The notes under the pieces: model-generated
What the model saw: only the letters and a program-made list of their open reading frames with translations
Told to the model about the DNA's origin: nothing
The model's database searches: none
Shown: positions 11,364 to 34,775 of the stretch, one piece after another
How the letters are laid out: each line of letters opens with the position of its first letter
Numbering within the stretch: the first letter of the stretch is position 1
Virus record (IMG/VR): IMGVR_UViG_2863357390_000001
Strand: one strand, 5' to 3'
Source: a virus
Lineage: Duplodnaviria > Caudoviricetes
Length of the DNA: 64,000 bases
Made by a program: the position numbers and the translations under genes

Positions 11364-12895
11364 TCACCGTAACCGACCTGTTCTGCGGAGCCGGGGGCTC
11401 CGGACTCGGCGCGACCGCCGTCCCCGGCGTCCAGCTCGTCATGGCCGCGAACCACTCCCCGCGCGCCATCGAGACCCACGCCGCGAACTTCCCGGACTGC
11501 GCACACGACTGCGCCGACATCTCCCAGGTCGAGCCCCGCCGCTACCGGCGCACCAACATCCTGTGGGCGTCGCCGGAGTGCACCTCGCACTCCGTCGCGA
11601 AAGGACGCAAACGCCGCCAGGTCGGCCCCGGCCTGTTCGACGAACCCCTGCCCGACCACGTCGCCGAACGCTCCCGGGCGACCATGTGGGACGTACCCCG
11701 CTTCGCCGAGGTGCACCGCTACGACGCGGTGATCGTGGAGAACGTCGTCGACGCCGCGCACTGGGCTCCGTTCCAGGCGTGGCTGATGGCCATGGACTCC
11801 TACGGCTACGACCACCACGTCGTGTACCTCAACTCCATGCACGCCCCCGCGATCGCCGCGCCCCGTGCCCCGCAGTCCCGCGACCGGATGTACGTGGTGC
11901 TCTGGCGGCGCGGCAACCGACGCCCGGACCTGGAGATCCGGCCGCGGGGCTGGTGCACCGGCTGCGCGGCCGAGGTCGAGTGCCGGCAGGCATGGAAACG
12001 GCGCGGCGCGACGTGGCCGCTGGAGCGGTGGGGCCGCTACCGCGCCCAGTACACCTACGCGTGCACCACCCCGGGCTGCGGCAGGCCGGTCGAGCCCTAC
12101 GTGCTGCCCGCCGCGTCCGCGATCGACTGGTCGATGCTCGGCGAACGGATCGGCGACCGGGACAAGCCGTTGTCGGACAAGACCATCGCGCGTATCCGCG
12201 CCGGCCTGGCCCGCTACGCCGGTGCCCAGCTGGTGCCGTCCGGGGGCACGTGGAACGAGTCCGCCCAACCCGTGACCGGTCCGTTCCGGTCCCGTACGAC
12301 CCGGGAGAACGAGGGGCTGCTCGTCCCGGTCGAGGGCAGGGTCGGCAACGCCGCACTCCCAGCCGCGGCACCGATGCGCACCCAGACGACCCGGCACGAG
12401 ACCGCGCTGGTCGTCCCGTACTACGGGACCGCCGAGGCCGCGCAGCCGACCGACCGGCCGTTGGGCACCCTGACCACGGTGGACCGCTACGGCCTGGCGT
12501 TCATCGCCGAGCTGCGCGGCGGCGGCTCCACCGCCCGGGACGTCCGCGAGCCGCTGTCGACCGTGACCGCGAGCGGCACCCACCACATGCTCGTCCGGCA
12601 CAACACCGCGCGCGGCGACGAGGGCTACCTGTCCACGCCCGTGGACGAGCCGATGCGCACGCTCACCACCGCCGGACACCAGTCCCTGGTCGGCTGGTCC
12701 GAGCGGCCTCCGGCCGTGGAGGACTGCACGTTCCGGATGCTCGCCGTCCCGGAGATCCAGCGCGCCATGGCGTTCGGCGACGACTACGTGGTCACCGGGA
12801 ACAAACGCGAGCAGGTCAAGCAGTTGGGCAACGGAGTCACCCCGCCCGCGGCCGAGTTCCTGATCCGCGCCGTCGTCGACTCCCTCACCCCCTGA
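11360..12895 (+). CDS. DNA (cytosine-5) methyltransferase
   Basis: DLFCGAGG (I), SPEC (IV), VENV (VI), QSRDR (VIII), QLGNGV (X). Confidence 0.93.
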   Translation: MITVTDLFCGAGGSGLGATAVPGVQLVMAANHSPRAIETHAANFPDCAHDCADISQVEPRRYRRTNILWASPECTSHSVAKGRKRRQVGPGLFDEPLPDHVAERSRATMWDVPRFAEVHRYDAVIVENVVDAAHWAPFQAWLMAMDSYGYDHHVVYLNSMHAPAIAAPRAPQSRDRMYVVLWRRGNRRPDLEIRPRGWCTGCAAEVECRQAWKRRGATWPLERWGRYRAQYTYACTTPGCGRPVEPYVLPAASAIDWSMLGERIGDRDKPLSDKTIARIRAGLARYAGAQLVPSGGTWNESAQPVTGPFRSRTTRENEGLLVPVEGRVGNAALPAAAPMRTQTTRHETALVVPYYGTAEAAQPTDRPLGTLTTVDRYGLAFIAELRGGGSTARDVREPLSTVTASGTHHMLVRHNTARGDEGYLSTPVDEPMRTLTTAGHQSLVGWSERPPAVEDCTFRMLAVPEIQRAMAFGDDYVVTGNKREQVKQLGNGVTPPAAEFLIRAVVDSLTP

Positions 12896-12938: not shown

Positions 12939-13163
12939 ATGACCGACACCGACAACCTCCACTCCACCCTCTCAGCCTGGCGGGTCGGCGACATCGGCAT
13001 CTTCCGCCACGACGAGGTCGGCGACATCGAGGTCGAGGTCGAGCGCATCTACAGCGACGGCCCCGCAGCCCCCGCGCTGGGCATCGTCTACGCCGACGAC
13101 TGGCACGCGGTGATCGACCCGTCGCGGCTGCGCCCGGCACCCGCGGCCGAGGTGTCCCGGTGA
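12939..13163 (+). CDS. Hypothetical protein
   Basis: GAGGAGG RBS. Confidence 0.5.
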   Translation: MTDTDNLHSTLSAWRVGDIGIFRHDEVGDIEVEVERIYSDGPAAPALGIVYADDWHAVIDPSRLRPAPAAEVSR

Positions 13164-13408
13164 CCGCCCCGGACCCCGAGACCACGGCCGCCCGGGACCT
13201 CGCCACCGCCTGGTGCACGCTGCCCGGCTGGACCCGTGCCCACGCCCTGATCGAGATCGGGTCGATGGGCGCGGTCGCCCTGTACTCGACCGGGTGCGAG
13301 CGGGACTACCGCCCGCCGGACCCGGAGGTGGACGAGCCGATCGTCGCCCCGGACGACATGCCGCGCTGCAAGCGGTGCCTGCGCCGATCCGAGGAGCGCG
13401 CATCGTGA
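13160..13408 (+). CDS. Small zinc-binding protein
   Basis: RAH...GC...PRCKRC; coupled. Confidence 0.5.
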   Translation: MTAPDPETTAARDLATAWCTLPGWTRAHALIEIGSMGAVALYSTGCERDYRPPDPEVDEPIVAPDDMPRCKRCLRRSEERAS

Positions 13409-13737
13409 CCACCCCCTCCACCGGCCACGACCAGCCGTGGCTGCCGACCGCCGGCCACCCGGCGGTGTGGATGCCGCACGCCACCGGCGATGACGACTCC
13501 CGACTGGTCGTCGACGTCCTGGACGTCTGGCCCGACGCCGGGCGCCGGCACCACACGCCGAGCGCGCTCCTGTGCGAGGTACGGGAGCCTGGCGAGGGCA
13601 CTCCGGTGTGGGTGTGTACCGAGCAGGATCTCCTCCCGCCCGCCGTCCCTCAGGCCACGGCAGAGCCGACCGAGTGGCACGAGGGGGACGCCACAGATCT
13701 TGGGGACGCAGTCACCCCGCCCGCCGAGGAGGCGTGA
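13405..13737 (+). CDS. Hypothetical protein
   Basis: Coupled ORF. Confidence 0.5.
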   Translation: MTTPSTGHDQPWLPTAGHPAVWMPHATGDDDSRLVVDVLDVWPDAGRRHHTPSALLCEVREPGEGTPVWVCTEQDLLPPAVPQATAEPTEWHEGDATDLGDAVTPPAEEA

Positions 13738-13738
13738 C

Positions 13739-13936
13739 GTGGCCGCCTACCGATCCGTACGACTGATGTGCGACGGAGCGCGCTGCCTCACGGAGTACAT
13801 CCCAACCGACCCGACGCCGACTGCGAGCGCTGCCCGGTACCTCGCCTCCCGACGGGGCTGGACGACTGTCGCCCGGCGCGACTACTGCCCGGCGTGCTGC
13901 CCCGCCACCGCCAACACCACCGCCAAGGAGGCGTGA
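13739..13936 (+). CDS. Small zinc-binding protein
   Basis: CDGARC...RGW...DYCPAC. Confidence 0.5.
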   Translation: MAAYRSVRLMCDGARCLTEYIPTDPTPTASAARYLASRRGWTTVARRDYCPACCPATANTTAKEA

Positions 13937-14307
13937 TGCCCCGCTTGATGTCCGTCGCGATGACGGAGGACGCCGTCCGATCCCGCATCAAGACCGTGAC
14001 GCGTCGCAAGGGCTGGGTCGACCTCCAGCCCGGTACCCGTCTCACCCTGTGCCGCAAGATCATGGGCCGCAAGCCCGGCGAGCCGCTGGTGCGGATCGTG
14101 GACGTCGAGGTCGTGTCCGTCCGCCGCGAACGCCTCGACACCATCACCGCCGACGACGTGGCCCGCGAAGGCTGCCCCGGCATGACCCCGGACGAGTTCG
14201 TCGACCGGTTCTTCGTGCGCGCCCAGCGGATCGACCCGGCCGCAGAGATCACCCGCATCGAGTGGCGCTACCTGCCCGACACCACCGAGGAGACCGTCCG
14301 TGCGTGA
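13936..14307 (+). CDS. ASCH/PUA-like domain protein
   Basis: KTVTRRKGW...VVSVRRERLDTITADDVAREG...RIEW. Confidence 0.7.
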   Translation: MPRLMSVAMTEDAVRSRIKTVTRRKGWVDLQPGTRLTLCRKIMGRKPGEPLVRIVDVEVVSVRRERLDTITADDVAREGCPGMTPDEFVDRFFVRAQRIDPAAEITRIEWRYLPDTTEETVRA

Positions 14308-14656
14308 GATGCGTCGGTCCATCCAGCCCACCTACGACAGCCGTGAGACCGGACCCCGGTATCGGGTCACCTACCAGCTCGACGACCGCACCATCACCTT
14401 CCGGGAACCCATCGCCGACCCGTTCGGGAGGTTCACGCTCCGCGTGTCGTGGTGGGACCGCTTCAAGTCGCTGCTGCGCCGCGACATGGCCGTGACCGTA
14501 CTGGTCGACGGCGACCCCGAGGTGATGGACGACGTCCTGGAGTTGGACGCGGACACCCTCGTGCCGTACTCAACCCGGCAGGCCGAATTTCGGGCGGGGG
14601 TCCACAAGAGCTTGGCCCGATTCGCCAAGGAGAACGAAACCGTCGAGGGAGCGTGA
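14300..14656 (+). CDS. Hypothetical protein
   Basis: RBS; overlap with neighbours. Confidence 0.5.
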   Translation: MREMRRSIQPTYDSRETGPRYRVTYQLDDRTITFREPIADPFGRFTLRVSWWDRFKSLLRRDMAVTVLVDGDPEVMDDVLELDADTLVPYSTRQAEFRAGVHKSLARFAKENETVEGA

Positions 14657-14659
14657 GCC

Positions 14660-14905
14660 GTGGCCAACGACGACACCTGGATCTACCCCGCACCCGCCTG
14701 GAGGACCGGCGACCGGGTCGCCATCGACGACAGCAGCCGCCTCGACTACGACGAGGCTGGGACCGTCATCGGACCCGACCCGTACGACAACGGCGCGTGG
14801 CTCGTCGAACTGGACGACGGCACCGAGACCTCTGCGTACTCCGATGAGCTGACCGGGCTGATCGAGCCCCACTCCGCTTCGTCTCCCGAAAGGACAGACA
14901 CGTGA
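14660..14905 (+). CDS. Small SH3/KOW-like protein
   Basis: WRTGDRV...GTVIG...WLVELDDG. Confidence 0.45.
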   Translation: MANDDTWIYPAPAWRTGDRVAIDDSSRLDYDEAGTVIGPDPYDNGAWLVELDDGTETSAYSDELTGLIEPHSASSPERTDT

Positions 14906-15177
14906 GCAGCGACCCCGCCGCCATCACCATCCACCTCGGCATCGGCGGCCTGGACCGCAACGAAGCCACTGCCGTTCTCCGCGCCATCCCGGCCGGACGC
15001 TCGGCCACGTTCGACGTCACCCAGCCCGCCCTCGGCGGCCCGCGCTACGACGTCACCCTGCACGACCTGTCCAGCGTGCAGGCCCGAGACCTGCTCGCCG
15101 CCCACATCACCGCCGCCGAAGCTGTGTGGAACACGGGAAACGGCGATGGCACCGCCCCGCCCGCCGAGGAGGCGTGA
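14902..15177 (+). CDS. Hypothetical protein
   Basis: Coupled ORF. Confidence 0.5.
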   Translation: MSSDPAAITIHLGIGGLDRNEATAVLRAIPAGRSATFDVTQPALGGPRYDVTLHDLSSVQARDLLAAHITAAEAVWNTGNGDGTAPPAEEA

Positions 15178-15180
15178 GCC

Positions 15181-15381
15181 GTGGCGGTCTTCATGGACTC
15201 CGCAGCATTCTTTCGCCGCCAAGCCATGCTCGCCCGCCGAGCGGAGGTCATGGCGGCCAACCCGACGATCACCGAGGCATCCGCTCTCGCGCCGCTCATG
15301 GGCGACATGCAGAGCGAGTACTGGAAATGGTGCCTGGAGCGCCACCTCATCGAACCGGCCGCGCCCGAGGGTGCGGGGTGA
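15181..15381 (+). CDS. Hypothetical protein
   Basis: GAGGAGG RBS. Confidence 0.45.
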   Translation: MAVFMDSAAFFRRQAMLARRAEVMAANPTITEASALAPLMGDMQSEYWKWCLERHLIEPAAPEGAG

Positions 15382-15610
15382 GCTCCGTGCCGGACGGGAT
15401 ACGCCAGCCCGTCCGCCACGACCTCACCACCACAGAACTCGGCGCCCGCCTGCACGTGGTCGAACGCCCGGTCTTCCCGTGCCCCCGGTGCGGCCGGGCC
15501 GGGTGGCTGGCCGTGCACCTGCACGGCGTGCGCCGGCCGTGCGGCCACACCCGCAGCCTCCCGCCCCTGACCCCCACACCCGCACACCACCGCCACCACC
15601 GAGGAGCAGC

Positions 15611-15955
15611 ATGACCACCGATCCCCTCGCGTACTTCGAGGACGAGACCCTGCCCGACCACTGGTCCAACGGCGACCTCGCCGCCGAGATCACCAGGAAC
15701 GACCCCGTCGCAGACGCCCGCGTCGTGTGGATCCTCGCCGCCCGCGTGGCAACGGCCGGCGCGGCGAACACCGACCCCTTGCACACCCTCCACGACCTCG
15801 GCCGCGCCGTCGCCGCGATCACCGTCACGGCCGACGCGATCATCCGAGACCGTTTCGACGACCTCGACGCCGAGGAGACCACCGACTTCCGGTCCACGAT
15901 CGACCACCTCGTCGCCGCCGCGAAGGGCCTGGACGACTTGTCGGGGTGGTTCTGA
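15611..15955 (+). CDS. Hypothetical protein
   Basis: GAGGAG RBS; overlaps RuvC start. Confidence 0.55.
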   Translation: MTTDPLAYFEDETLPDHWSNGDLAAEITRNDPVADARVVWILAARVATAGAANTDPLHTLHDLGRAVAAITVTADAIIRDRFDDLDAEETTDFRSTIDHLVAAAKGLDDLSGWF

Positions 15956-16485
15956 TGGACGCCGCCTCCGCGCGCGGGAACGTCATCGGCCTGGACTTGT
16001 CCATCACCGCCACCGGGATCGCCTACCCCGACGGCTCCACCGCCACGGTGAAGACCCGGTCCGCCGACGGCGACCGCCGTCTGCTGGACATCGTCGTCGC
16101 CGTCAATCTCGCCCTCGGCTCCGAGCCCACGCTCGTGGTGATCGAGGACCTCCCGACCCACGCCCACGCCGCCGGGATCACCGGCATGGTCCACGGCGCG
16201 GTCCGGGCCGCACTGCTCGACGCGGGCATCCCGTACGTCCTGGTGCCCCCGGCCACGCTCAAGGCGTACGCGACCGGGAGGGGCAACGCGGACAAGACCG
16301 CGATGGCCCTGGCCGCGTTCAAACGCGCCCAGGTCGAGTTCGGCGACGACAACCAGTGCGACGCGTGGTGGCTGCGCCATGCCGGTCTCGACCACCTCGG
16401 CGTCCCGCCGGTCGCGCTGCCCGAAGCCCAGCGGAACAGGCTGTCGGTGCTGCGCTGGCCCGACCTGCCGGCCCGGGTCGCGTGA
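15955..16485 (+). CDS. ruvC: RuvC-like Holliday junction resolvase
   Basis: IGLDLSITATG, VVIED, LKAYATGRGNADK, DNQCDA. Confidence 0.85.
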   Translation: MDAASARGNVIGLDLSITATGIAYPDGSTATVKTRSADGDRRLLDIVVAVNLALGSEPTLVVIEDLPTHAHAAGITGMVHGAVRAALLDAGIPYVLVPPATLKAYATGRGNADKTAMALAAFKRAQVEFGDDNQCDAWWLRHAGLDHLGVPPVALPEAQRNRLSVLRWPDLPARVA

Positions 16486-16682
16486 TGAGCTCGGACAACC
16501 TGTTCATCCCGAGCGTGCACGCCCGCGTCCACGCGTGGGACCGCGACGACCAGGACGGCTACCTCCAAGACCAGCGGCACGCGGCCCGGCTGACCGTGGC
16601 CCGCCACGCCCACGACCGGGACGACTGCGTGGTCCTGCTCGACATGCTCGGCCTGCTCCCCGACACCAACCCCCGCCACTGA
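16485..16682 (+). CDS. Hypothetical protein
   Basis: AHDRDDCVVLLDMLGL motif; coupled. Confidence 0.5.
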   Translation: MSSDNLFIPSVHARVHAWDRDDQDGYLQDQRHAARLTVARHAHDRDDCVVLLDMLGLLPDTNPRH

Positions 16683-16695
16683 CAGGAGACACCCC

Positions 16696-17037
16696 GTGAC
16701 CGTGTTCCGCCGCTACGTGGAAGAGAACGACTGGGAGGGCGAGACCTGGACGTTCTGGCTCCAGGTCGACGGCAACGAGGCCGGCCTCGACCGGCTCGCC
16801 AGTCTGCTCGCCGACCTCGACCCAAGCAGCCAGTACGACACCGAGGACTCGGAGGAGTCCCCCTACACCCTGGCCGACGAGGTCGAGCCGGAGCACGTCG
16901 TGGACAAGCTCGTCGAGTACTCCGACACCGGCTACATGGCCTCCCACACCAAGGTCCCCGGCCGCCTCGTGCTGCCCGAGGCGACCGTCGCCGAGACCCT
17001 CCACAAGGGCGGGATCAAGGACTTGTTCGTCGCATGA
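16696..17037 (+). CDS. Acidic hypothetical protein
   Basis: AGGAG RBS; coupled to the next gene. Confidence 0.55.
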   Translation: MTVFRRYVEENDWEGETWTFWLQVDGNEAGLDRLASLLADLDPSSQYDTEDSEESPYTLADEVEPEHVVDKLVEYSDTGYMASHTKVPGRLVLPEATVAETLHKGGIKDLFVA

Positions 17038-17540
17038 CCGCCGGGACCACCGCGGCCCTGGTGTTCGTCGCGCTCTACACGGCCCACCACCTGGCCGACC
17101 ACTGGGTACAGACCGACCACCAAGCCATCCACAAAGGACTCCCCGGTTGGCGGGGACGCCTGGCCTGTGCCCGGCACGTCGCCACCTACACCCTCACCAC
17201 CCTCGCCGCCGTCCTGGCCGTGCTCTGGCTGCCGCTGGGCCTGCACGCCACCTGGACCGGCATCGCCGTGGGCCAGGCCGTGTCGGCGGTCACCCACTAC
17301 GTGATCGACCGGCGCACCCCGCTGGCCCGACTCGCGCACGCCACCGGCAAAGGCGACTACCACGACCGCGGAACCCCACGGCCGCACCGGGTGTTCGCGT
17401 ACCGGCCGGACGTGGAGGACGACCCGACGGCCGACCTCCCGCTCGACCAGGCCCCGGTGGTGCGGGGCGCGTACTTCCTGGACCAGTCTTTGCACATCGC
17501 CGTGCTGTTCGCGGCGGCCTTGATCACCGCCCTGCTCTGA
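17034..17540 (+). CDS. DUF3307-like membrane protein
   Basis: AHHLADHWVQTD, HVATY, THYVIDRR, DQSLH. Confidence 0.75.
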   Translation: MTAGTTAALVFVALYTAHHLADHWVQTDHQAIHKGLPGWRGRLACARHVATYTLTTLAAVLAVLWLPLGLHATWTGIAVGQAVSAVTHYVIDRRTPLARLAHATGKGDYHDRGTPRPHRVFAYRPDVEDDPTADLPLDQAPVVRGAYFLDQSLHIAVLFAAALITALL

Positions 17541-17565
17541 CCCAACGCACCGAGGAGACCCGCCA

Positions 17566-18198
17566 GTGATCATGACCAAGGTGGTGCTGGACCACCGCAA
17601 CCCGCAGACCGTCGAGGATCTCCGAAACGCCTACCAAATGCACGTCCGCGTCCGGGAGATCGCCGAGGGCCTGCCCGACCCGGACGGCGGCAGGCTGCTG
17701 TGGGGCCTGCACGGCACGACCCTGCTCGTGCAGACCGGAGCGGCGGTGTCCCCGCTCGCCCTGCCCGCCGGGTACGCCGTCTCGGTCCACTCCGCGAACC
17801 TGGCATCCCGCCTCGACCGGATCACCGCCGGTTCGGTCGTGCGGTGGGCGGTCATCGCCAACCCGACCCGGGCACGGGCCAAGGCCACCGCCGTCGGCCC
17901 CGACGGCGTCCCGGTGCGCAAGTCGAGGGGCCAGCCCACCCCGGTCGCCCTGGGCGAACGCAACGAGTGGATCACCCGCAGGCTCGCCCCGGCACTGGAG
18001 ATCACCGCGCTGACCGGCAGGCCGCTGCCCGCCGCCGCCGGCACCCAGATCCGCACGAGGCACCGCGTGCACCACTCCCGGCACCTGTGGCAGGGCACCG
18101 CGACCGTGGCCGACCCGGACGTCCTGCGCGGTCTGGTGTCGTCCGGGATCGGCCACGGCAAGGCGTTCGGCTGCGGCCTGCTGCTGGTGGCGTCGTGA
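17566..18198 (+). CDS. cas6e: Type I-E-like CRISPR RNA endonuclease Cas6e (CasE/Cse3)
   Basis: N-terminal AYQMHVRV, LLVQT, ANPT, and C-terminal Gly-loop GIGHGKAFGCGLL. Confidence 0.88.
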   Translation: MIMTKVVLDHRNPQTVEDLRNAYQMHVRVREIAEGLPDPDGGRLLWGLHGTTLLVQTGAAVSPLALPAGYAVSVHSANLASRLDRITAGSVVRWAVIANPTRARAKATAVGPDGVPVRKSRGQPTPVALGERNEWITRRLAPALEITALTGRPLPAAAGTQIRTRHRVHHSRHLWQGTATVADPDVLRGLVSSGIGHGKAFGCGLLLVAS

Positions 18199-18953
18199 CC
18201 TCGCCGACCCGACTCGTCTGGGGACTGGCCGGACACCCCGAGCCGACCGGGGCCGTCGCGAACCTGTTCGCCGACCGGCCCGGGATGTGCGTGATGTGCG
18301 GGCTGTCCGCCGACCGCACCGCCGACGCCGCCCGTGCGACCGGCGCGAACTTCACCGACCAGTACCTGTACCGCCGGCCGGACTCGGACCGGATCTGCCC
18401 GGCGTGCGTGTGGTGCTGCTCGGGGAAACCCCCGGCGACGCTGCGCATGTGGACGGTCGTCGCCGCGATCGGCGCGACCCTGCCCGACAACCACCCCAAG
18501 TGCTGGCTGCCCAGCCAACCAGGTTTGTGCCTGACCAACCGGGCCGCGCCCGGTGTCGTCGCCGACATCCTCGCCGCCCCACCGGAGGGGGCGTGGCTGG
18601 TCACCGTCGCGACCTCCGGGCAGAAACACGTCCTGCCCTACGGGAAAGTCAACCACGGCGGTCCCGAGTGGACGGTCCGAATGGAGAACACCACGATCAC
18701 CTCCAACGCCCCCACGTGGCGCCGCGTCCTGGGCCACGCCGCCACACTGCGCGCGGCCCGCCACACCGGCGACGACCTCGCCGCCGGGCGGCCCACCCTC
18801 GCCGCGATCCGCACCGCCGACGACCTCGACACGTGGAACCACCACCACGCCGGACTCGCCGACCACGTCGGCTCACCACTACTCGACCTAGCCCTCTGGT
18901 GCCTGACCAAGGAGACGATCCATGACCACGCCCACGCCGCCCCCGTCGCCTGA
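18195..18953 (+). CDS. csf1: Type IV large subunit Csf1 (Cas8-like)
   Basis: CVMCG...NFTD...ICPACVWC zinc motifs; TSGQKHVLP; GTGA overlap with cas6e. Confidence 0.75.
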   Translation: MTSPTRLVWGLAGHPEPTGAVANLFADRPGMCVMCGLSADRTADAARATGANFTDQYLYRRPDSDRICPACVWCCSGKPPATLRMWTVVAAIGATLPDNHPKCWLPSQPGLCLTNRAAPGVVADILAAPPEGAWLVTVATSGQKHVLPYGKVNHGGPEWTVRMENTTITSNAPTWRRVLGHAATLRAARHTGDDLAAGRPTLAAIRTADDLDTWNHHHAGLADHVGSPLLDLALWCLTKETIHDHAHAAPVA

Positions 18954-19281
18954 CGAGCTGATCCAGGCCACCGTCGCCTGGCTCAACGCGCTGCTCGACT
19001 CGGCCTCGGCCGACGTGCTCGGCGTCGCCCACTACTGGGACCGCGCCCAGTCCGCGCTGATCACCGCCGCCACCGCCGACACGGTCGGGGAGGCGGTCAC
19101 CACCGCCGCCCGCAAACTCCAGATCGAGACCACCCAGGCCCGCACCGACACCGCGCTGCTGGAGGCGTGCGCGGTGATCGCCGCCGACTACCCCGCCTGG
19201 CAGGCGAGGGTGGAACGCGAAGCCGTCTACCTCGTCGCCCTCGCCCGTGTCGCCCGCACCGCCCGGAAGGCCACCCGATGA
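18922..19281 (+). CDS. cas11: Type IV-B small subunit (Cas11-like)
   Basis: 119-aa helical protein (YWDR...ARKLQI) between csf1 and csf2. Confidence 0.65.
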   Translation: MTTPTPPPSPDELIQATVAWLNALLDSASADVLGVAHYWDRAQSALITAATADTVGEAVTTAARKLQIETTQARTDTALLEACAVIAADYPAWQARVEREAVYLVALARVARTARKATR

Positions 19282-20168
19282 CCACCACGCTGACGATCCC
19301 GTTCACCGCCACCCTGGTGGCGCCGCTGCACCACGGCGCCGGCACCGCCGGCAACACCAGCCTCATCCGCACCCAGCGGATGGTCCGCCCCGACGGCACC
19401 GTAGCGCAGGTGCCGTTCGTGTCCGGGAACTCGCTGCGCCACGGCCTGCGCGCCGGCCTGGCCTGGCACGCCGTGCGCACCCTGGGCGTCGAGGACGGCG
19501 GCCTGTCCAAGGCCGTGGTCGACCTGCTGTGGTCCGGCGGCGCGATCACCCGCACCGGCTCCCAGACCGACCTCGCGCTGCTGCGCCGGGTCGAGCACCT
19601 GTACCCGCCGCTCGCCCTGATGGGGTACAGCGCCGCGGCCGACATGACCGCGGGCACCCTCGCCGTCGACCAGCTGCACCTGGTCTGCGCCGAGAACGCG
19701 TGGCGGCTGCCCGGGCGGCTGGCCGGCGACCCACGCGCCGCACGGCCGGCGTCGGCGTTCCGCGGCGAGGAATTCGGGACTCGCCACGACGTCGCCGGGA
19801 CCCCGGTCGACCGGTACACCGCGCTGGCCGACGAGCTGGTCCCCACCACCACCCAGATGATCTACGAGCACCAGGTCGTGCTGCCCGGTGCCGCCCTGTA
19901 CGGCGGGCTCGTGCTGACCCCGGCGGCCACCGACGCACAGCTCAGGGTCCTGCTCGTCGCCCTCGACGAGATCATGCCCGCCGACCGGGACGGCGTCCGC
20001 GTCCTGCAACTTGCCGCGAAGCGCGGCGTCGGCTACGGCACCTGCCGGGTCGACCTCGACCTGCCGGACGGCCTGCCCACCCCCGCCGACGCCCGCGCCT
20101 GGTGGGAAGCCCACCTCGTCGAGCACGCCGAGGAGATCACCGCCCTGTGGCAGGAGATCGTCGCGTGA
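19278..20168 (+). CDS. csf2: Type IV backbone Csf2 (Cas7-like)
   Basis: TLVAPLHHG, VPFVSGNSLRHGLR, LLWSGG, PPLALMG, GEEFGTRHD, QMIY, RGVGYG. Confidence 0.88.
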   Translation: MTTTLTIPFTATLVAPLHHGAGTAGNTSLIRTQRMVRPDGTVAQVPFVSGNSLRHGLRAGLAWHAVRTLGVEDGGLSKAVVDLLWSGGAITRTGSQTDLALLRRVEHLYPPLALMGYSAAADMTAGTLAVDQLHLVCAENAWRLPGRLAGDPRAARPASAFRGEEFGTRHDVAGTPVDRYTALADELVPTTTQMIYEHQVVLPGAALYGGLVLTPAATDAQLRVLLVALDEIMPADRDGVRVLQLAAKRGVGYGTCRVDLDLPDGLPTPADARAWWEAHLVEHAEEITALWQEIVA

Positions 20169-20878
20169 GCCCGGTCGTCCCCGCCGGCACCGTGGTCGAC
20201 ACCACCGACGACCCGCGCTGGCAGCCACTGGTCGTCACCGCGACCCTGACCGAGCCGGTCGTCGGCCTGGACTCGCAGCCGCTGTGCCTGGACGGGCCGC
20301 TGGCGTGGTGCGCCGCGCAGCTCGCCCTGGCCGACGAGGCCGGCCTGCCGCCGCTGCGGCACGACTGGGCACCCGACCTCGCCCTGCCCCTGGCCACGTG
20401 GACCGCCGCGCCCTCCCGGCCCGACACCGACTCGCGGCTGCGCGCCGCCGACGGCGAACGGGTGTGGGGGTGGGCGTGCTCGGCCGCGTCGTGGACCGCG
20501 CTCGGCCACACCACCGTCGAGATCCGCCGCCGTCCCCCGGTCGGAGAGATGGCCCGGTTCACCGCGGACGGCAAGCACCACTCCGGGTTGGGCCCGTACA
20601 AGGCCCGGGACACGCCGATGGCCGCGACCTGGGTCGACACGGTCGTCTGGCACGCCCTGGGCGACCCCGACGCCGTCGCCGGGCTGCTCGCCCACCTGGG
20701 ACACCTGGGCCGGGCGACCCGGCACGGCCACGGCCGCATCCAGACGATCACCGTCGAACCCGGCCGGGACCGGGACGCGTGGCGGTCCCGGCCGCTGCCC
20801 GACCCGACCGGCCCGGCCGGGTCGATCCGCGCCCCCTACCACCACCACTCCCGGAGGATGCCGTGCCGCACCCCGTGA
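20165..20878 (+). CDS. csf3: Type IV Csf3 (Cas5-like RAMP)
   Basis: PLVVTATL, LDGPLAW, LPLA, WACS, WHALGD, LGRATRHGHG. Confidence 0.8.
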   Translation: MSPVVPAGTVVDTTDDPRWQPLVVTATLTEPVVGLDSQPLCLDGPLAWCAAQLALADEAGLPPLRHDWAPDLALPLATWTAAPSRPDTDSRLRAADGERVWGWACSAASWTALGHTTVEIRRRPPVGEMARFTADGKHHSGLGPYKARDTPMAATWVDTVVWHALGDPDAVAGLLAHLGHLGRATRHGHGRIQTITVEPGRDRDAWRSRPLPDPTGPAGSIRAPYHHHSRRMPCRTP

Positions 20879-21768
20879 TCGCCTGGGACGGGCAGCCGGT
20901 CGGCGACCGCTACCCGGCGATGGACGTCGTCCCCGGCGTGCTGCCCTGGTCCACCCTGGACCAGGACTCCCGGCCGTGGCAGGACCGCAAGAAGCACTGG
21001 CACGACCTGGGCGTCCGCGACACCACGCCCCGCGACCACGCCGCGGGGATGATGACCACCGGACGGCACGGCGCCCTCTCGGGCGGGGTGTCGCGGTTCG
21101 ACCCGGTGCTCGCCGAGGTCCTGTACCGGTGGTACTGCCCGCCGGGCGGGCGGGTGCTCGACCCGTGCGCGGGCGGACCCGTACGCGGCCTGGTCGCCTC
21201 CCACCTGGGCCTGGAGTACGTCGGCGTCGACCTGGACGCCGACCAGGTCGACGCGAACACCGCCGTCGCGGCGGGTTCGCCGTACCCGTCCCCGGCCTGG
21301 TTCGCCGGGGACGCGCTGACCTACGCCTGGCCGGTCTCCGACGGGGACGCGGACATGGTGCTGACCTGCCCGCCCTACCACGACCGGGAGCGCTACTCCG
21401 ACGACCCCCGCGACCTGTCCACCATGGACTGGCCCGCGTTCCTCGACGCCCACCGCGCCGTGGTCGGCCGGGCCGCCGCGGCGCTGCGCGAGGACCGGTT
21501 CCTCGCGTGGGTGATCTCCGACGTCCGCGACCGGCACGGCCACCTGCGCGGCCTGCCCCGCCACGCCTGGCAGCACCTGGAGGACGCCGGACTGCACGTC
21601 GTCAACGAGCACGTGCTGCGTGCCCCGGTCGGCACCGCGCACAAACGCATGCGCCCGCCGTGGCAGGCGTGCCGCACCGCGACCCGCCGCCACCAGATCG
21701 TCCTGGTCGCGGTCAAGGGCGACCGGCGTGCCGCGACCCGCGCCGTGTCCGGGGGTGGCGGGTGCTGA
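20863..21768 (+). CDS. Amino (N6-A/N4-C) DNA methyltransferase-like protein
   Basis: SRFDPVLAE, VLDPCAGGPVRG (SAM-binding), DMVLTCPPY (catalytic); GGAGG RBS. Confidence 0.8.
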   Translation: MPHPVIAWDGQPVGDRYPAMDVVPGVLPWSTLDQDSRPWQDRKKHWHDLGVRDTTPRDHAAGMMTTGRHGALSGGVSRFDPVLAEVLYRWYCPPGGRVLDPCAGGPVRGLVASHLGLEYVGVDLDADQVDANTAVAAGSPYPSPAWFAGDALTYAWPVSDGDADMVLTCPPYHDRERYSDDPRDLSTMDWPAFLDAHRAVVGRAAAALREDRFLAWVISDVRDRHGHLRGLPRHAWQHLEDAGLHVVNEHVLRAPVGTAHKRMRPPWQACRTATRRHQIVLVAVKGDRRAATRAVSGGGGC

Positions 21769-22535
21769 TCGACTCGACCCGGATCACCGACCGCGACCGC
21801 GACCACTGGGACGCGCTGGAGCGCTACGACCGGATGCTCGCCGCCGACCCGGCCCTGGACCGCAAGGCCGAGAGCGCCGTCGCCGAGGTCCGGGCGTTCC
21901 TGGACGCGGGCGAGGCGTACGTGTCGGTGTCCTGGGGCAAGGACTCCGTCGTCGTCGCCCACCTGGCAGCCCTGGCCGAGCTGACGGTCCGGGTGGTGTG
22001 GGTCCGGTCGGTCCTGTTCGAGACCCCCGAGTGCGACGCGGTGCGCGACGCGTTCCTCGACGCCCACCCGCAGGTGCGCTACGAGGAGATCGCGGTCGAA
22101 ATGCGGAACCCGAAACGCGGCGAACCGGGCTACGACACCCGGCACGCCGACCCGCACGCCGACCACCAGGACGTCCTCCGGGAGACCCTGACCGGCCGGT
22201 GGATCTCCGGGCTGCGCGGCGAGGAGTCCCGGATGCGCCGCATGTCCATCGCCCACCGGGGCCTGTCCACGAAGAACACGTGCCGGCCGATCGGCCGGTG
22301 GGACGCCACGCACGTGTTCGCCTACCTGTGGCGCGAGAAACTCCCGGTGCACCCGGTGTACGCGATGACCGCCGGCGGACACTACGACCGCCGCTGGCTG
22401 CGGGTGCACCCGCTGGGGTCGGCACCCCCGGCCCGGTCCGCCGTGCACGGCCGGGACATGGACTCGTGGGAGGACGCCTACTACGGGGACGTGCTCGCCG
22501 CCGCGAGGCAGGCCCGCGCCCACCTGTGGCGGTGA
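21762..22535 (+). CDS. cysH: CysH/PAPS-reductase-family protein (type IV-B associated)
   Basis: SVSWGKDS PP-loop, GLRGEESRMR, RPIGRWDATHVFAYL. Confidence 0.85.
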   Translation: MLIDSTRITDRDRDHWDALERYDRMLAADPALDRKAESAVAEVRAFLDAGEAYVSVSWGKDSVVVAHLAALAELTVRVVWVRSVLFETPECDAVRDAFLDAHPQVRYEEIAVEMRNPKRGEPGYDTRHADPHADHQDVLRETLTGRWISGLRGEESRMRRMSIAHRGLSTKNTCRPIGRWDATHVFAYLWREKLPVHPVYAMTAGGHYDRRWLRVHPLGSAPPARSAVHGRDMDSWEDAYYGDVLAAARQARAHLWR

Positions 22536-22549
22536 CCGGCTGAACGACC

Positions 22550-22580
22550 AACGCCCCGCCCGACAACCGGGCGGGGCGTT
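22550..22580. terminator. Hairpin between convergent genes, ending the Cas operon
   Basis: AACGCCCCGCCCG-acaac-CGGGCGGGGCGTT, 13-bp perfect stem. Confidence 0.7.
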
Positions 22581-22598
22581 GCGCACGCCGGCGGAAGC

Positions 22599-23060
22599 TC
22601 AGGGGCCGTCGGGGTAGACGACGGCGCGGAGTGCCGCGGCACCGATCCTGTAGATGGCCTCGGCCGCGTCGTCGCTGTGGTCGATCCACCAGCGGGCATC
22701 GGTCCGACCGGTCAGCACCTCGCGCATGGCGTCGATCCAGACGTCGCAGAACGCCGGGGTGAATCCGTTGACGCCGATCGACGCGACCAGCTCTTCGACG
22801 TGGCGTTCGACAGCGGGCGCGGCCCTGCCTCGGATGGCTTCGGCCCAGGCGATCTGTTTGGTGCTGCCGGTGAGCGGGGGCAGGTCGAGGTCGGCGGTGA
22901 CCCGGGCGCCGGCGCGGTGTTCGGCGGCGGTGTGGCAGGCGAGGCAGGCGCGGCGTTCCTGGCGGCGGACTTCGCCGCGGTGTTGGTTGCGGACGTTGGT
23001 GCCGGTGATGTTGATGGTGTCCTCGTGTCCGCAGGTGCGGGTGATCGTGTACTGGGCCAT
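22599..23060 (-). CDS. Hypothetical protein with zinc-ribbon-like N-terminus
   Basis: GGAGG RBS; TCGH...CLAC; GSTKQIAWAEAIR. Confidence 0.65.
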   Translation of the reverse strand: MAQYTITRTCGHEDTINITGTNVRNQHRGEVRRQERRACLACHTAAEHRAGARVTADLDLPPLTGSTKQIAWAEAIRGRAAPAVERHVEELVASIGVNGFTPAFCDVWIDAMREVLTGRTDARWWIDHSDDAAEAIYRIGAAALRAVVYPDGP

Positions 23061-23083
23061 GGTGTCCTCCGTCGCTCACCCAA

Positions 23084-23128
23084 ACCGTACAAGTCATGCT
23101 TGCAATACACAAGTGGTGCTTGTACGGT
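23084..23128. promoter_or_regulatory. Overlapping divergent promoters with a 10-bp inverted repeat
   Basis: ACCGTACAAG...CTTGTACGGT; + TTGCAA-N17-TACGGT (+1 near ATG 23135); - TTGTGT-N17-TACGGT. Confidence 0.65.
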
Positions 23129-23134
23129 CGTGCC

Positions 23135-23719
23135 ATGCGATTCGACACCACCCGCCCCGCCGCCGCCTCGCCCCAGCACTACCACGCCACCCCACCCGAA
23201 CGACCGTTGCCCGAGTACGCCGAGCTGACCGACGACGAGTTCACGGCGCTGTACCGCGACACCCTCGGCCAGGGCGAAGCCCCCGCCGAGTACTTCGCCG
23301 CCGAGCTGCTCCGCCGATTCCCCGGCCTGCAGTTCGCCCACCGCCAGTACAAGGACTCGTTTCGCCGCGACATGGACGAAACCACCGCGACCGAGAAGGC
23401 CGCCGGCACGTGGAACGTGATGAAGGTCGTCCCGGTCGAGCCGTCGGAGCAGACGCAGCGACTCGCCGAGGCGTTCGCCGCGCTGGTCCGGGCGACCGCC
23501 TACGACGACGACACCAGCCTGCGCGCCCGACCCACCATCACCCTCGACGAGATCCTGGAACGCGCGCAGATCAAGCGCGACACCTGGCACGGCTACATCA
23601 GCCGCGGGCAGGTCGGCGGCAGGATCGGCCACGACTGGCACACCGGAGAGCCGGTATGGGACCGGGACGTGGTCGAGTACTGGATGCGCCGGCGCCGTAC
23701 CCCGGCCCGCAGCCGGTAG
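23135..23719 (+). CDS. Putative regulator with C-terminal AlpA/MerR-like HTH
   Basis: LDEILERAQIKRDTWHGYISRGQ...PVWDRDVVEYW. Confidence 0.55.
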   Translation: MRFDTTRPAAASPQHYHATPPERPLPEYAELTDDEFTALYRDTLGQGEAPAEYFAAELLRRFPGLQFAHRQYKDSFRRDMDETTATEKAAGTWNVMKVVPVEPSEQTQRLAEAFAALVRATAYDDDTSLRARPTITLDEILERAQIKRDTWHGYISRGQVGGRIGHDWHTGEPVWDRDVVEYWMRRRRTPARSR

Positions 23720-23739
23720 CCGCGCCCGCGAACAGACCT

Positions 23740-23773
23740 GTGCCCCGCCACCTCCGGGTGGCGGGGCACTTTC
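23740..23773 (+). terminator. Intrinsic terminator
   Basis: GTGCCCCGCCACC-tccg-GGTGGCGGGGCAC followed by TTTC. Confidence 0.7.
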
Positions 23774-23788
23774 GCTCGTCCCGATCCG

Positions 23789-24034
23789 TCAGTCGAGGGT
23801 GTCGCGCACCGATTCGGCGTGCTGGCGTGCCGACTGCTCGGCAACACTCGTCAGCCCGCCTCCGATAGCCGAGGCTTCGGCGTTCGTCAGCGAGATGGTG
23901 GCCCACTGCCCCCCGGCGTCGGAAATCCGAAGCCGCACGTCACCGCCGGCTTCGGGTGTGACCGAGAATTCGATCGGGCCTTTCCACAAGACAGGGCAGC
24001 TCGGCGGCCCGTATGGCCGTGGCGTGTCGCACAT
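23789..24034 (-). CDS. Hypothetical protein
   Basis: AGGAGG upstream. Confidence 0.45.
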   Translation of the reverse strand: MCDTPRPYGPPSCPVLWKGPIEFSVTPEAGGDVRLRISDAGGQWATISLTNAEASAIGGGLTSVAEQSARQHAESVRDTLD

Positions 24035-26345: not shown

Positions 26346-26657
26346 CTACTCGCCGTCGCCGTTCCCGTGGTCGCGGTACCACCGCAGCCACGACCAGGGC
26401 CTCACCCACACACCCCACGGCATCATCGACTCCTCGGTCCCGGTCAACCCCGCGACCCCGACCTCGATCAGCCGCATCCCGCCCAGGACGACCACCACGA
26501 CCGCGGGCGCGACGGCCGGGGCCAGCCACCACGGCCACCGGACGTCCCGGGCCACGTCGGACCACCTGTCCGCCTCGACCGCGACGACCACGCACCACCC
26601 CAGGCCCAAGGCCGCGCTGACGGTTTCCCTGAGCAGCTCCCGGTTCGTCTTCTTCAC
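26346..26657 (-). CDS. Small membrane protein
   Basis: GTGA overlap with the cas8e stop; AGGAG RBS; hydrophobic segments. Confidence 0.5.
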   Translation of the reverse strand: MKKTNRELLRETVSAALGLGWCVVVAVEADRWSDVARDVRWPWWLAPAVAPAVVVVVLGGMRLIEVGVAGLTGTEESMMPWGVWVRPWSWLRWYRDHGNGDGE

Positions 26658-28525
26658 GACGACTCCTCTCCTTCCCGTTCCGTGTCGTCCGGTGCGGCGC
26701 CCGGAGCACGTCGCCCCGGCGTGGTCAGCGCCGCCTCGGGATCCCACCCGTTGATCAGCCGCGACCGCAGCGCCGACACCGAGACCACGCAGCGCTCGTC
26801 ACGCGCCCACTGCGCCTGGGTCTTCTCCTCCCCGAACGCCACCAGCATCGGCGACGGCCTCCCCCCGCCCGCACCGCGTCCGGACCCGGGCTTCCGCCCG
26901 CCGGACCGCCGGGCCCTCGCGCCCGCCGCCGCGGCGGCGAACGCCCGCGCCTGTACCGGGGTGACCTTTCTCGGATAGGGCTTGGTGGGCAGGTCGGTGA
27001 AGTACGCCACGTACCGCTCCAACGCGACCCCGGCCTTCGCACGCATCAACATGCCCGACGAGCCGCCGAACGGCAGCCGGTCCAAGGCCTGCGCGCACAG
27101 CCCGACCAGTCGCCGGCCGTAGTCCAGGCACACCCCGGCCAGCTCCTCGTGGGACGGGTCGGTGTCCAGCGCGGCCAGCCGGCGGGTCGTGTCGGACCAC
27201 AGCCGCTCCAGCGCGTAGGCGTCGGGCGTGAGCCTGTCGCCGAGGGTGACGTGCGGCAGCGCCTCGGCCGCGGCGACGGCCAGGCCGCGCAGCGTGGCCG
27301 CCGTCTGGTGGTCGAGGAACGCCACCACGCGCGCGGTGGGCTCGGCGGCGTGCACCCCGACCGGTCCCAGGTCGACCCGGCCGTTGTGGTCGCCGACGGC
27401 CACGGAGCCGTGCGTGTTGTAGACGGCCTGGGACACCCACACCCGCAGCGGCAGGTCGGCGGGCAGCAGGCCGCGCCGGGCCGCGCCGACGGCGTGCACC
27501 AGTGCGCCGCTGTGCCAGCGGCGGGGGTCGGCGGCGGGCGGGACGTGCAACGGCCGGGTGAGCAGCCACCACCGGGGCTGGTGGCCGTACGGGTCGAACG
27601 CGTCGGGGTCCGCCGTGCCCTGGCCGTCCCGGGAGTCGCGGCACAGCAGGGTCGGGTCCAGGCGGTGGTAGTGGTTCCAGTACCCGGCGACCCGGTCCCC
27701 GTCGTGCCACGCCCACCGGGCCACCCGGCCGTCCCGGTCGGGGAACAGCCTCAGCCGGCGCGCGGGCATCGTGGCCAGCTCCAGCCGCCCGGCCGGGACG
27801 CGGTCGACGCGGATGCCCGCCGGCGGGCCCTCGTCGCGTTCCCACTCCGGGGCGTCGCCCGGCGCGCGGGGCGCGGGCGGCAGGTTGAGCAGCAGCGTGT
27901 CCTTGAGGGTGGCGCCGAGCACGACCAGCCGGACGGTGGCGCCCAGCGGGCCGATCCGGGACCCGTAGACCTTGTTCCCCTTCCCGGCGGGGTCGCCGGG
28001 CGCGGCGGGTTTGATCCCGCCGGTGTCGTAGGCCATGCGGACGAGCAGGTTCCGGGCCGCCTCGCCCGGCTCCCACGGCGGGTGGTCCGCGCCCCGGTAC
28101 AGGCCGGGGTGGAACCACGCCGCGCCCTGCCCGCCCAGCCAAGCGGGGTGCAGCTCGACCGCGCCCCGGTTCGGCTCGGCCAGGTGGGCGCACTGGGCGA
28201 AGGGCCGGTCGGGGTCGTACAGGTCGAACCGGTTCGCCCACCGGTCGAGGTAGTCGGCGATCCGGCCGTGCGGGTCCAGGGTCGGCGCCCGCCAGGCGGC
28301 GTCCCACCCGTCGTCGTCGACGGGTCCGGCGGCGGCCTCGTAGACGGCCAGCAGCAGCCGCAGCAGGACCAGGCCCTCGCCGGACAGGCCGAGGCGGGCG
28401 AGGTTGTGCCGGTGCGCGGACTGCAGCGCCTCGCGCAGTCCCACCTCCCGTTCGCCCTCGCCCCCGGTGGTGTACACCGGGATCCAGGGCCGGGAGAGCA
28501 GGTCGTAGGACGGGGCGCCGGTCAC
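26654..28525 (-). CDS. cas8e: Orphan type I-E large subunit Cas8e (CasA/Cse1) with extra C-terminal DNA-binding-like module
   Basis: YDLLSRPWIPV, LLRLLLA, RFDLYDPDRPFAQ, AYDTGGIK, GDP.GKG, TLKDTLLLNL, PEWER, ARRLRL; tail AFGEEKTQAQWARDERC...RSRLINGWDPEAALTTP. Confidence 0.85.
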   Translation of the reverse strand: MTGAPSYDLLSRPWIPVYTTGGEGEREVGLREALQSAHRHNLARLGLSGEGLVLLRLLLAVYEAAAGPVDDDGWDAAWRAPTLDPHGRIADYLDRWANRFDLYDPDRPFAQCAHLAEPNRGAVELHPAWLGGQGAAWFHPGLYRGADHPPWEPGEAARNLLVRMAYDTGGIKPAAPGDPAGKGNKVYGSRIGPLGATVRLVVLGATLKDTLLLNLPPAPRAPGDAPEWERDEGPPAGIRVDRVPAGRLELATMPARRLRLFPDRDGRVARWAWHDGDRVAGYWNHYHRLDPTLLCRDSRDGQGTADPDAFDPYGHQPRWWLLTRPLHVPPAADPRRWHSGALVHAVGAARRGLLPADLPLRVWVSQAVYNTHGSVAVGDHNGRVDLGPVGVHAAEPTARVVAFLDHQTAATLRGLAVAAAEALPHVTLGDRLTPDAYALERLWSDTTRRLAALDTDPSHEELAGVCLDYGRRLVGLCAQALDRLPFGGSSGMLMRAKAGVALERYVAYFTDLPTKPYPRKVTPVQARAFAAAAAGARARRSGGRKPGSGRGAGGGRPSPMLVAFGEEKTQAQWARDERCVVSVSALRSRLINGWDPEAALTTPGRRAPGAAPDDTEREGEESS

Positions 28526-31302: not shown

Positions 31303-31316
31303 CAGGGGTCTCCCGG

Positions 31317-32489: not shown

Positions 32490-32511
32490 GGCGTCTTCCT
32501 GGTGTTTTGCC

Positions 32512-32681
32512 TGGTGAATGGGGGTGTGAAGGGGGTGAATGCGAGGGTGAGTCGGTTCGGTGTCACCGGGTCTCACTCCGCTCTCACTCCGCATCACTGC
32601 GGCTTTCACCCCCGTGTCACCCCGTATCACTGCGGTCTCACCTCCGGTCTCACCCCGCTTGTCACCCCCGCTCTCACCCCC
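32512..32681. repeat. Candidate cis-acting locus of transfer (clt): periodic GTGA-core repeats downstream of traB
   Basis: 11 TCAC-core units at about 11-bp period (32563-32681) facing 4 oppositely oriented GTGA units (32512-32551). Confidence 0.5.
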
Positions 32682-32761
32682 TCCGACCTGTAACTGCGTG
32701 TCCGTCGGCCGGGGTGACGCGTCGACGGACGGACCGGCCGCCTCCGGGACTTCGGCGCGGA

Positions 32762-34774: not shown

Positions 34775-34775
34775 G

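Follow-up and report, generated by a model that had tools for sequence, protein, structure and literature searches.

A prophage-borne type IV-B CRISPR-Cas operon led by cas6e and its possible link to host type I-E CRISPR RNA

Introduction

Type IV-B is the one widespread CRISPR-Cas (short palindromic repeats, clustered and regularly interspaced, with CRISPR-associated proteins) subtype of still unknown function. In the IV-B system of the Mycobacterium sp. JS623 megaplasmid (7JHY; PMC7937560), a csf1-cas11-csf2-csf3 core with a cysH-like neighbour is carried by an actinobacterial mobile element without array, adaptation genes, nuclease or helicase. The presence of Cas6 in IV-B loci has been reported as "rare exceptions: only 12 instances" (Pinilla-Redondo et al., PMC7038947), and later reviews keep the subtype defined without Cas6 and its function unknown (PMC8175902, PMC11656645). 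Here, we analyse a IV-B operon that begins with a cas6e gene and lies on the prophage of IMG/VR virus record IMGVR_UViG_2863357390_000001 (Duplodnaviria; Caudoviricetes), of which a stretch of 64,000 nucleotides, referred to below as the window, was examined. The operon resembles the JS623 system in its core genes, its cysH-like neighbour, its actinobacterial mobile carrier and the lack of array, adaptation genes, nuclease and helicase. Unlike that system, the clade to which it belongs is prophage-borne and has a translationally coupled Cas6e gene in first position, with a methyltransferase of CPPY type beside cysH in about half of the loci, whereas the JS623 system encodes no Cas6 itself and loaded no type I-E CRISPR RNA (crRNA) (PMC7937560).

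Other described systems share single traits with this locus. In type IV-A3 (PMC7038947), a type IV effector is likewise combined with a Cas6 of I-E ancestry and has a statistical and functional tie to the I-E system of the host: its enzyme is of Cas6e type, its repeats are I-E-like and it co-occurs with type I-E. It differs in having its own array and a DinG helicase, in the lack of Cas11 and CysH, in its proteobacterial plasmid carriers and in targeting other plasmids. RNA anti-CRISPRs (Racrs), which are solitary repeat units, are described (PMC10651486, summarised in PMC11656645) as acting in prophages of targeting hosts through aberrant, non-productive complexes of Cas-crRNA type, and counter-defence of this kind is proposed here. 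Racrs, however, are RNA decoys that trap host Cas6 and Cas7, whereas in the present case phage proteins would trap host RNA, and the window holds no repeat unit. The use of crRNAs from chromosomal host arrays by a mobile element's own Cas6 and effector, as proposed here, is also ascribed to CRISPR-associated transposons (CASTs) in PMC11656645; these are coupled to transposition, while no transposase is found here. Finally, in the amplified self-targeting of prophages (Nobrega et al. 2020, PMC7708048), many spacers of one genome match a resident prophage, and self-targeting with a functional protospacer adjacent motif (PAM) is common in type I systems, which was explained by primed adaptation plus anti-CRISPRs (Acrs). 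That work draws no link to IV-B or Cas6e, whereas here self-targeting was seen again in each host of a single prophage-borne cas module that could be tested. A cas6e-led prophage clade that occurs nearly only in I-E hosts, and is heavily and PAM-proficiently targeted yet retained, makes the function of IV-B testable as CRISPR counter-defence.

Results

The window corresponds to positions 1091118-1155117 of the host genome, a single contig of 7.35 Mb from an actinomycete, and has a G+C content of 72%. Real genes were sorted from the many spurious open frames with a frame plot of the G+C content at third codon positions (GC3), which, combined with a listing of start codons, delineated seven + strand genes at 17566-22535 with overlaps of 4-32 nt between neighbours. 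All seven frames are open and have a strong coding signal. The operon and the hairpin that follows it comprise the following features:

17566-18198, + strand: cas6e, 210 aa (PF08798, E 5e-27, residues 1-209, 95.9 bits; PADLOC Cas6e, 5e-28)
18195-18953, + strand: csf1, type IV Cas8-like large subunit (PDLC01721 Csf1_0_IV, E 6e-34, residues 2-240; TIGR03114, 1e-6)
18922-19281, + strand: cas11, type IV small subunit (PDLC01187 typeIV_Cas11, E 2e-25)
19278-20168, + strand: csf2, type IV Cas7 backbone (PDLC01572, E 2e-86)
20165-20878, + strand: csf3, type IV Cas5 (TIGR03116, E 2.5e-18, full length; PDLC01727, 2e-28)
20863 (or 20875)-21768, + strand: class I S-adenosylmethionine (SAM) methyltransferase (PF01555 N6_N4_Mtase, a marginal match with 27.8 bits at a cut-off of 26.7)
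21762-22535, + strand: cysH-like gene, PAPS-reductase family, CasCysH type (PF01507 PAPS_reduct, E 9e-12)
22551-22581, no strand: hairpin between convergent genes, with 13 bp of perfectly paired stem and a loop of 5 nt, read from the sequence

The cas6e gene has two possible starts, the GTG at 17566, which is preceded by GAGGAG 8 nt upstream, and the ATG at 17572, as in database entry P0001, and its end is overlapped by the start of csf1 by 4 nt. The csf2 gene is present in a single copy in the host genome, and the profile of the Csf2 proteins of the clade matched Csf2 of the solved IV-B complex 7JHY (E 4e-18). One methyltransferase gene separates the cysH-like gene from csf3. The hairpin at 22551-22581 is a probable bidirectional terminator. 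Hairpins of the form CCCCGC...GCGGGG with longer loops are common in related loci, where their place and sequence are inconsistent, and they, and with them the hairpin at 22551, resemble ordinary GC-rich terminators.

Neither a CRISPR array nor a solitary I-E repeat nor an Rfam CRISPR-DR was found in the 64-kb window, which was searched for the host I-E and I-C repeats at up to 8 mismatches and for I-E-type hairpins. The sole match of this search was an unrelated GC hairpin at 62354, and an Rfam scan of the window at gathering thresholds gave no match. Profiles of helicases, nucleases, Cas1 and Cas2 had no match among the seven operon products, the rest of the window not having been scanned exhaustively. 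The locus thus combines csf2 with csf1, cas11 and csf3 in one operon and an adjacent cysH-like gene, and has no array, DinG/RecD helicase, cas1 or cas2 in the operon, as expected of IV-B. Since Cas6e comes first in the operon, against the IV-B criterion that Cas6 be absent, the locus was classed as a IV-B variant and not as the canonical form. The seven overlapping genes (cas6e-csf1-cas11-csf2-csf3-methyltransferase-cysH), the terminal 13-bp hairpin, then placed at 22550, and the lack of an array had all been named in a preliminary description made from the letters of the window. They were borne out by the GC3 plot, the starts and the searches, in which all the Csf and Cas6e genes matched their families.

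The assignment of the phage Cas6 to the I-E family, also made in that description, agrees with the full-length PF08798 match and with the conserved residues. Against the NCBIfam equivalog TIGR01907 the protein scored 38 bits, under the cut-off of 45 bits, while a profile of 27 relatives matched both T. thermophilus Cse3 and E. coli CasE over their whole length, the E values over 2Y8W, 1WJ9 and 4QYZ ranging from 2e-22 (T. thermophilus Cse3, 2Y8W) to 6e-19. In the alignment of 27 IV-B-linked Cas6e proteins, H26, G194, G196, G202, G204 and L205 are invariant, and the histidines of T. thermophilus Cse3 and of the two host-encoded Cas6e proteins align with His26. With His26 and the G-loop kept, the phage Cas6e is predicted to be catalytically intact. 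Its identity to the two Cas6e proteins of the host is only 23% and 32%, so it is not a recent loan from a I-E system. It groups with other IV-B-linked Cas6e proteins, and its gene lies among csf genes without an array and not inside a type I-E cas operon.

A word-based homologue search returned one Cas6e relative only, and thus an exhaustive search of 1.84 billion representatives was needed, which yielded 604. In a tree of 179 sequences, calculated with FastTree only, all 28 IV-B-linked Cas6e proteins fell within one well-supported set of 88, while 12 of 13 canonical I-E Cas6e proteins were outside it. The genomic context was usable for three sampled representatives, the contigs of P0029 (in the set) and P0045 (outside) being too short. 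P0057, inside the set, precedes csf1-cas11-csf2-csf3, and P0031, outside it, is part of a full I-E operon; P0118, which forms a long branch inside the set, is canonical I-E. Thus, the IV-B-linked Cas6e proteins form a distinct group, the edge of which is not clean.

Related loci were gathered by a Csf2 search of genome and viral collections, which gave 33 loci, 27 of them non-redundant, with Csf2 proteins 43-59% identical. They came from Phytoactinopolyspora, Nocardia, Brevibacterium, Streptomyces, five Corynebacterium species, Scrofimicrobium, Frankia, Cutibacterium and IMG/VR viral contigs. A cas6e homologue was found directly upstream of csf1 in 26 of the 27 non-redundant loci, spanning at least eight actinobacterial genera, and the order csf1-cas11-csf2-csf3-cysH is constant across the clade. 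About half of the loci have the methyltransferase gene, which adjoins cysH on one side or the other. Among the Cas6e relatives, the nearest (44% identity) is encoded by a phage-like contig (L008) with the same seven genes. The preliminary description had regarded the pairing of cas6e with csf1 as unusual. This holds for the literature, where only the 12 instances are mentioned, and not for the databases, where the adjacency survey showed the pairing to be already common and the rule in this clade.

The pairwise distances of Cas6e correlated with those of the Csf core with Spearman coefficients of 0.42-0.52, compared with 0.65-0.80 within the core. Cas6e is the fastest-evolving gene of the clade, with a mean pairwise identity of 31% versus 40-51% for the others. 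The distances of CysH did not track those of the Csf core (Spearman 0.04-0.21), which suggests that the cysH/methyltransferase end of the operon has been exchanged.

No array was found at the related loci, and a hairpin of I-E repeat type occurred within 8 kb in only one of 34 (L028). In this locus, a solitary I-E-like repeat unit, GTGTTCCCCGC-CATCAT-GCGGGGCTAAAACC, lies at 6279-6309, at the extreme 5′ end of cas6e, and was not seen in the other 33; it could be a binding site of Cas6e on its own mRNA or a Racr-like decoy. As to phage records, the only match to this Csf2 in INPHARED was orf42 of Skermania phage SPI1 (L001, KR011061; tblastn, 30% identity over 93% of the query). It stands within orf39-orf44, six co-directional genes annotated as "hypothetical protein", and its neighbours might, at a guess, be the other csf/cysH genes.

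The accessory genes were examined by alignment and modelling. The methyltransferase has invariant residues D100, P101, G104 and G105 in motif I (DPxAGG), followed by C169, P170 and P171; the latter belong to an invariant CPPY at the position of motif IV, where Cys replaces the D/N/S of (D/N/S)PP(Y/F). The family is large and annotated as class I SAM-dependent or DNA methyltransferases. The AlphaFold 2 (AF2) model of the protein (predicted local distance difference test score, pLDDT, 81.6) had its best Protein Data Bank matches of low root-mean-square deviation among the N2-methylguanosine (m2G) tRNA methyltransferases Trm11/TrmN, which would make an RNA substrate as plausible as DNA. A reading of the protein as ParB, prompted by blastn matches to phage "ParB/sulfiredoxin" genes, was dropped, as alignment and model are those of a plain class I methyltransferase. 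In the CysH-like protein, SWGKDS is conserved at the PP-loop position, and an alignment of 28 sequences contained no C-terminal cysteine motif of ECGLH type; CasCysH has been described likewise as lacking the C-terminal catalytic cysteine motif (PMC8175902).

The host of the prophage has two I-E loci with open cas3 (980 and 809 aa), cas8e, cas7e and cas6e frames, as well as at least eight arrays with 28-29-nt I-E repeats (GTCTTCCCCGCGCACGCGGGGGTGTTCC) and three with 37-nt repeats. Hence, the I-E arrays that the preliminary description had proposed to look for in the host do exist. A type I-C locus with cas3c, cas5c, cas8c, cas7c and cas4c is situated at 838-845 kb of the genome, where cas1 and cas2 were not included in the scan. 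Self-targeting was assessed by blastn of 177 host spacers against the host genome and by analysis of the flanking PAM positions. Sixteen I-E and five I-C spacers matched the element between genome positions 1091829 and 1167097, that is, window positions 712-61866 plus about 12 kb past the window end. Of the I-E protospacers, 14 are inside the window (712-61866) and two beyond its end; seven match perfectly, and 14 differ from their spacer at no more than two positions. In the register of the I-E PAM, 14 of the 16 are preceded by AA with a G, C or T after it. The protospacers in question are:

712-744, + strand: I-E protospacer, perfect match, AA PAM kept
starting at 4210, 25461, 38970, 45562 and 55935: further perfect I-E protospacers
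1552-1586, 4234-4270, 11492-11526 and 43402-43436, and genome position 1163300: I-C protospacers, matched from the 37-nt-repeat arrays at genome 918 kb and 923 kb

TTC precedes four of the five I-C protospacers, and the prophage is therefore self-targeted by two CRISPR types together, I-E and I-C. None of the 16 I-E and five I-C matches falls within the IV-B operon. As the PAMs are kept and the interference genes look intact, the spacers are genuine acquisitions from this element, and a single complete genome holds the prophage, the I-E systems and the self-targeting spacers. Further perfect or near-perfect I-E and I-C self-protospacers were noted outside the window, at genome positions 6846656, 6850157, 5606408, 1576384, 1708121 and 2381685, where they presumably sit in other mobile elements.

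A second, canonical Cas6e (190-225 bits) was detected in 10 of 12 other genomes that carry such a prophage, the prophage copy scoring 49-77 bits. Including the present genome, 11 of 13 hosts have a canonical Cas6e (190-227 bits). In comparison, of 401 genomes taken as an even sample of the class, 43-46 (about 11%) have I-E Cas7e. The difference in I-E co-occurrence, 85% versus 11%, gave a Fisher p of 7e-9, which is not corrected for phylogeny and overstates the case because kin are not independent, though at least eight genera are involved. Four genomes of this sample have a real Csf2, and Cas7e is present in three of them as well.

For nine hosts, the array beside the canonical cas genes was compared with 60 kb around the resident IV-B locus; G010 (a Frankia symbiont), the array region of which reads N, and G002, the I-E contig of which is too short for an array, were not testable. 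In all eight testable hosts other than the present one, the I-E array beside the cas genes contains spacers against the host's own IV-B prophage:

C. ulceribovis: 27 of 99 spacers
C. striatum: 29 of 75 spacers
C. phocae: 11 of 80 spacers
Scrofimicrobium: 8 of 28 spacers
Phytoactinopolyspora: 5 of 43 spacers
Brevibacterium: 2 of 14 spacers
Corynebacterium sp. MSK041: 1 of 18 spacers
Cutibacterium porci: 1 of 21 spacers

As a negative control, the spacers were compared with the prophages of other hosts, which gave only chance matches of 15-20 nt. Canonical PAMs of AAG/AAC type predominate at the protospacers of these hosts, and 8 of 10 hosts have an open cas3 frame (938-1073 aa) beside the I-E loci.

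Discussion

The coupling of the genes, the linkage of cas6e to csf1, the kept catalytic motifs, the co-occurrence with I-E hosts and the PAM-proficient self-targeting by hosts with open cas3 all argue for a module directed at the I-E system. The reading that we favour, if tentatively, is that it acts as an anti-I-E device, which would capture host crRNA and thereby protect the phage. The phage Cas6e would bind and cut the repeat hairpins of the host I-E transcripts and stay on the 3′ hairpin, serving as an adaptor that turns host repeats into a substrate of the module. Csf3, Csf2, Cas11 and Csf1 would assemble on the host crRNA bound by Cas6e, and the guides would either be diverted from Cascade or form Cas3-blind complexes with the same guides, by which the prophage would be shielded from I-E interference despite its numerous matching protospacers with a flanking PAM. 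As an accessory pair that modifies nucleotides, the CysH-like protein and the methyltransferase may act on the RNA or on the target to which the complex is bound. Since neither an array nor a I-E repeat was found in the window or at 33 of the 34 related loci, the host array is the only cognate substrate seen in the cell. The preliminary description had already tied the operon to host I-E crRNA through Cas6e. The host I-E loci, the self-targeting with kept PAMs and the similar picture in the relatives give strong circumstantial support to this tie, while processing, loading and inhibition remain inferred.

Sponge and hijack hypotheses have been voiced for IV-B in general (PMC7038947, PMC8175902), and no paper was found in the literature on the cas6e-led clade or on its anti-I-E reading. 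If the counter-defence reading is true, a new class of anti-CRISPR is added, and the self-targeting arrays of Corynebacterium, Nocardia, Streptomyces-like and other actinobacteria have to be read differently. A bolder form of it, which we consider unlikely, would be the first anti-CRISPR made from a complete Cas effector: stolen I-E guides would locate precisely the protospacers of the prophage that are open to attack by Cascade and shield them, or the CysH-like/methyltransferase pair would chemically mark them or the guide, and Cas3 would never be recruited. In this form, IV-B would gain its long-sought function, and the filling of arrays with spacers against a prophage that the hosts cannot remove would be explained.

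Several points weigh against crRNA capture. What was observed is a genomic signature, to which binding and cleavage of RNA and inhibition of the host system are added by reasoning. When the IV-B complex of JS623, which has no Cas6 of its own, was co-expressed with a I-E Cas6 and array, I-E crRNA was not enriched (PMC7937560), and IV-B overall correlates negatively with I-E (PMC7038947). The loci were chosen by Csf2 similarity, so another shared gene, for example, a small conventional Acr, could cause the tolerance. The I-C self-targeting (five spacers, four with TTC PAM) would not obviously be blocked by a Cas6e device, and another inhibitor or silent host CRISPR is thus needed in any case. 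That prophages can be extensively self-targeted is established in general (PMC7708048), the operon sits in an apparent early lytic operon, and simple sequestration does not account for what CysH and the methyltransferase do.

The heterogeneous RNA bound by the JS623 complex (PMC7937560) would fit a function independent of CRISPR RNA, which we regard as somewhat unlikely. In that case, Csf2/Cas11 filaments would form on non-CRISPR RNA, Cas6e would act on another RNA hairpin of phage or host, and CysH and the methyltransferase would alter this RNA or DNA in the service of phage development or to evade restriction. The tie to I-E and the self-targeting would arise as by-products, be it of the phage host range, of ordinary Acr genes or of silent host CRISPR, and the I-C self-targeting needs a separate explanation in any case. 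The near-invariant presence of CysH as a IV-B partner, with distances that are off the Csf core here, and the other DNA-modification genes of the prophage, such as that of a C5 methyltransferase, point the same way. However, the Cas6e family is specialised for I-E repeat hairpins and the phage member has kept both its catalytic His and its G-loop, no hairpin resembling a repeat was found to be conserved among the related loci, and the I-E co-occurrence (85% versus 11%) extends over at least eight genera.

The linkage of cas6e and the I-E co-occurrence apply equally if the phage hijacks guides for its own use, an explanation that we hold to be improbable. Cas6e and the Csf proteins would then load host I-E crRNA and serve, together with CysH and the methyltransferase, as a binder or modifier free of nuclease that is directed at relatives coming in or at further mobile elements remembered by the host, with superinfection exclusion or inter-element competition as the outcome, and the prophage's own protection would come from elsewhere. 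Since many spacers of the host arrays are directed at this phage family, guides taken over by the module would recognise superinfecting relatives. In plasmid competition, type IV-A works without a nuclease (PMC7038947), and the use of host crRNAs via Cas6 is stated for CASTs in PMC11656645. On the other hand, the survival of the prophage under tens of PAM-proficient self-targeting spacers is left unexplained, the stolen guides would also bind the prophage's own protospacers, and no operon product matched a helicase or nuclease. A decaying or selfish remnant, that is, a captured cas cluster with no current function, is very improbable and already disfavoured, for despite the lack of array, adaptation genes and nuclease in the operon, its seven frames are open with a strong GC3 signal, and the gene order has been kept over at least 27 diverged loci with invariant catalytic residues.

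Other features of the element

Besides the operon, the following genes of the window were considered:

15946-16485: ruvC, directly upstream of the operon
17034-17540: PHROG membrane protein, directly upstream of the operon
11360-12895: C5 methyltransferase, a DNA-modification gene on the prophage
26654-28525, - strand: solitary Cas8e/Cse1 homologue, full length (PF09481, E 2e-47; PADLOC Cas8e, 2e-47)

The first two genes agree with the earlier view that the operon continues the phage genes after ruvC and DUF3307, the latter being the name given there to the PHROG membrane protein. Other genes of the window include an exonuclease/Erf pair, terminase, portal, protease and major capsid, and the occurrence of phage genes across the window places the operon in a prophage, or else in a composite element of prophage-like character. 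A scan of 13000-23800 for sigma-70 promoters gave no match, such a scan being uninformative for an actinomycete with 72% GC. Among public sequencing runs, the stretch was found in two DNA runs of one sample and in no RNA run. Between the early and late phage blocks lies a leftward block (30568-36533, - strand; for example, 32762-34774) with a TraB/FtsK-like protein (phrog_24831, E 2e-103). Host spacers match the TraB/FtsK-like block too (36287, 38132, 38970), so this block is also treated as foreign. A 73-nt direct repeat with 86% identity was found at genome positions 1077343-1077415 and 1175281-1175353. The two copies, 98 kb apart, enclose the window and every prophage-directed protospacer and could be the attachment sites of an element that is large or composite.

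In none of the relatives was the solitary Cas8e found at up to 8 kb from the IV-B operon, and it accordingly does not belong to the conserved module. Its identity to the host Cas8e proteins is 35% in their N-terminal parts, and its AF2 model can be aligned from end to end with the Cse1 structures 4H3T, 3WVO and 4AN8, with an extra small C-terminal domain predicted after a basic, Gly-rich linker. The subfamily comprises about 25 proteins similar over their full length. The two members that were looked up (L113, L114) are standalone genes of actinobacterial origin, one on a phage-like element and the other on a conjugative element. The solitary Cas8e may be an independent anti-I-E device and is a candidate Cascade decoy.

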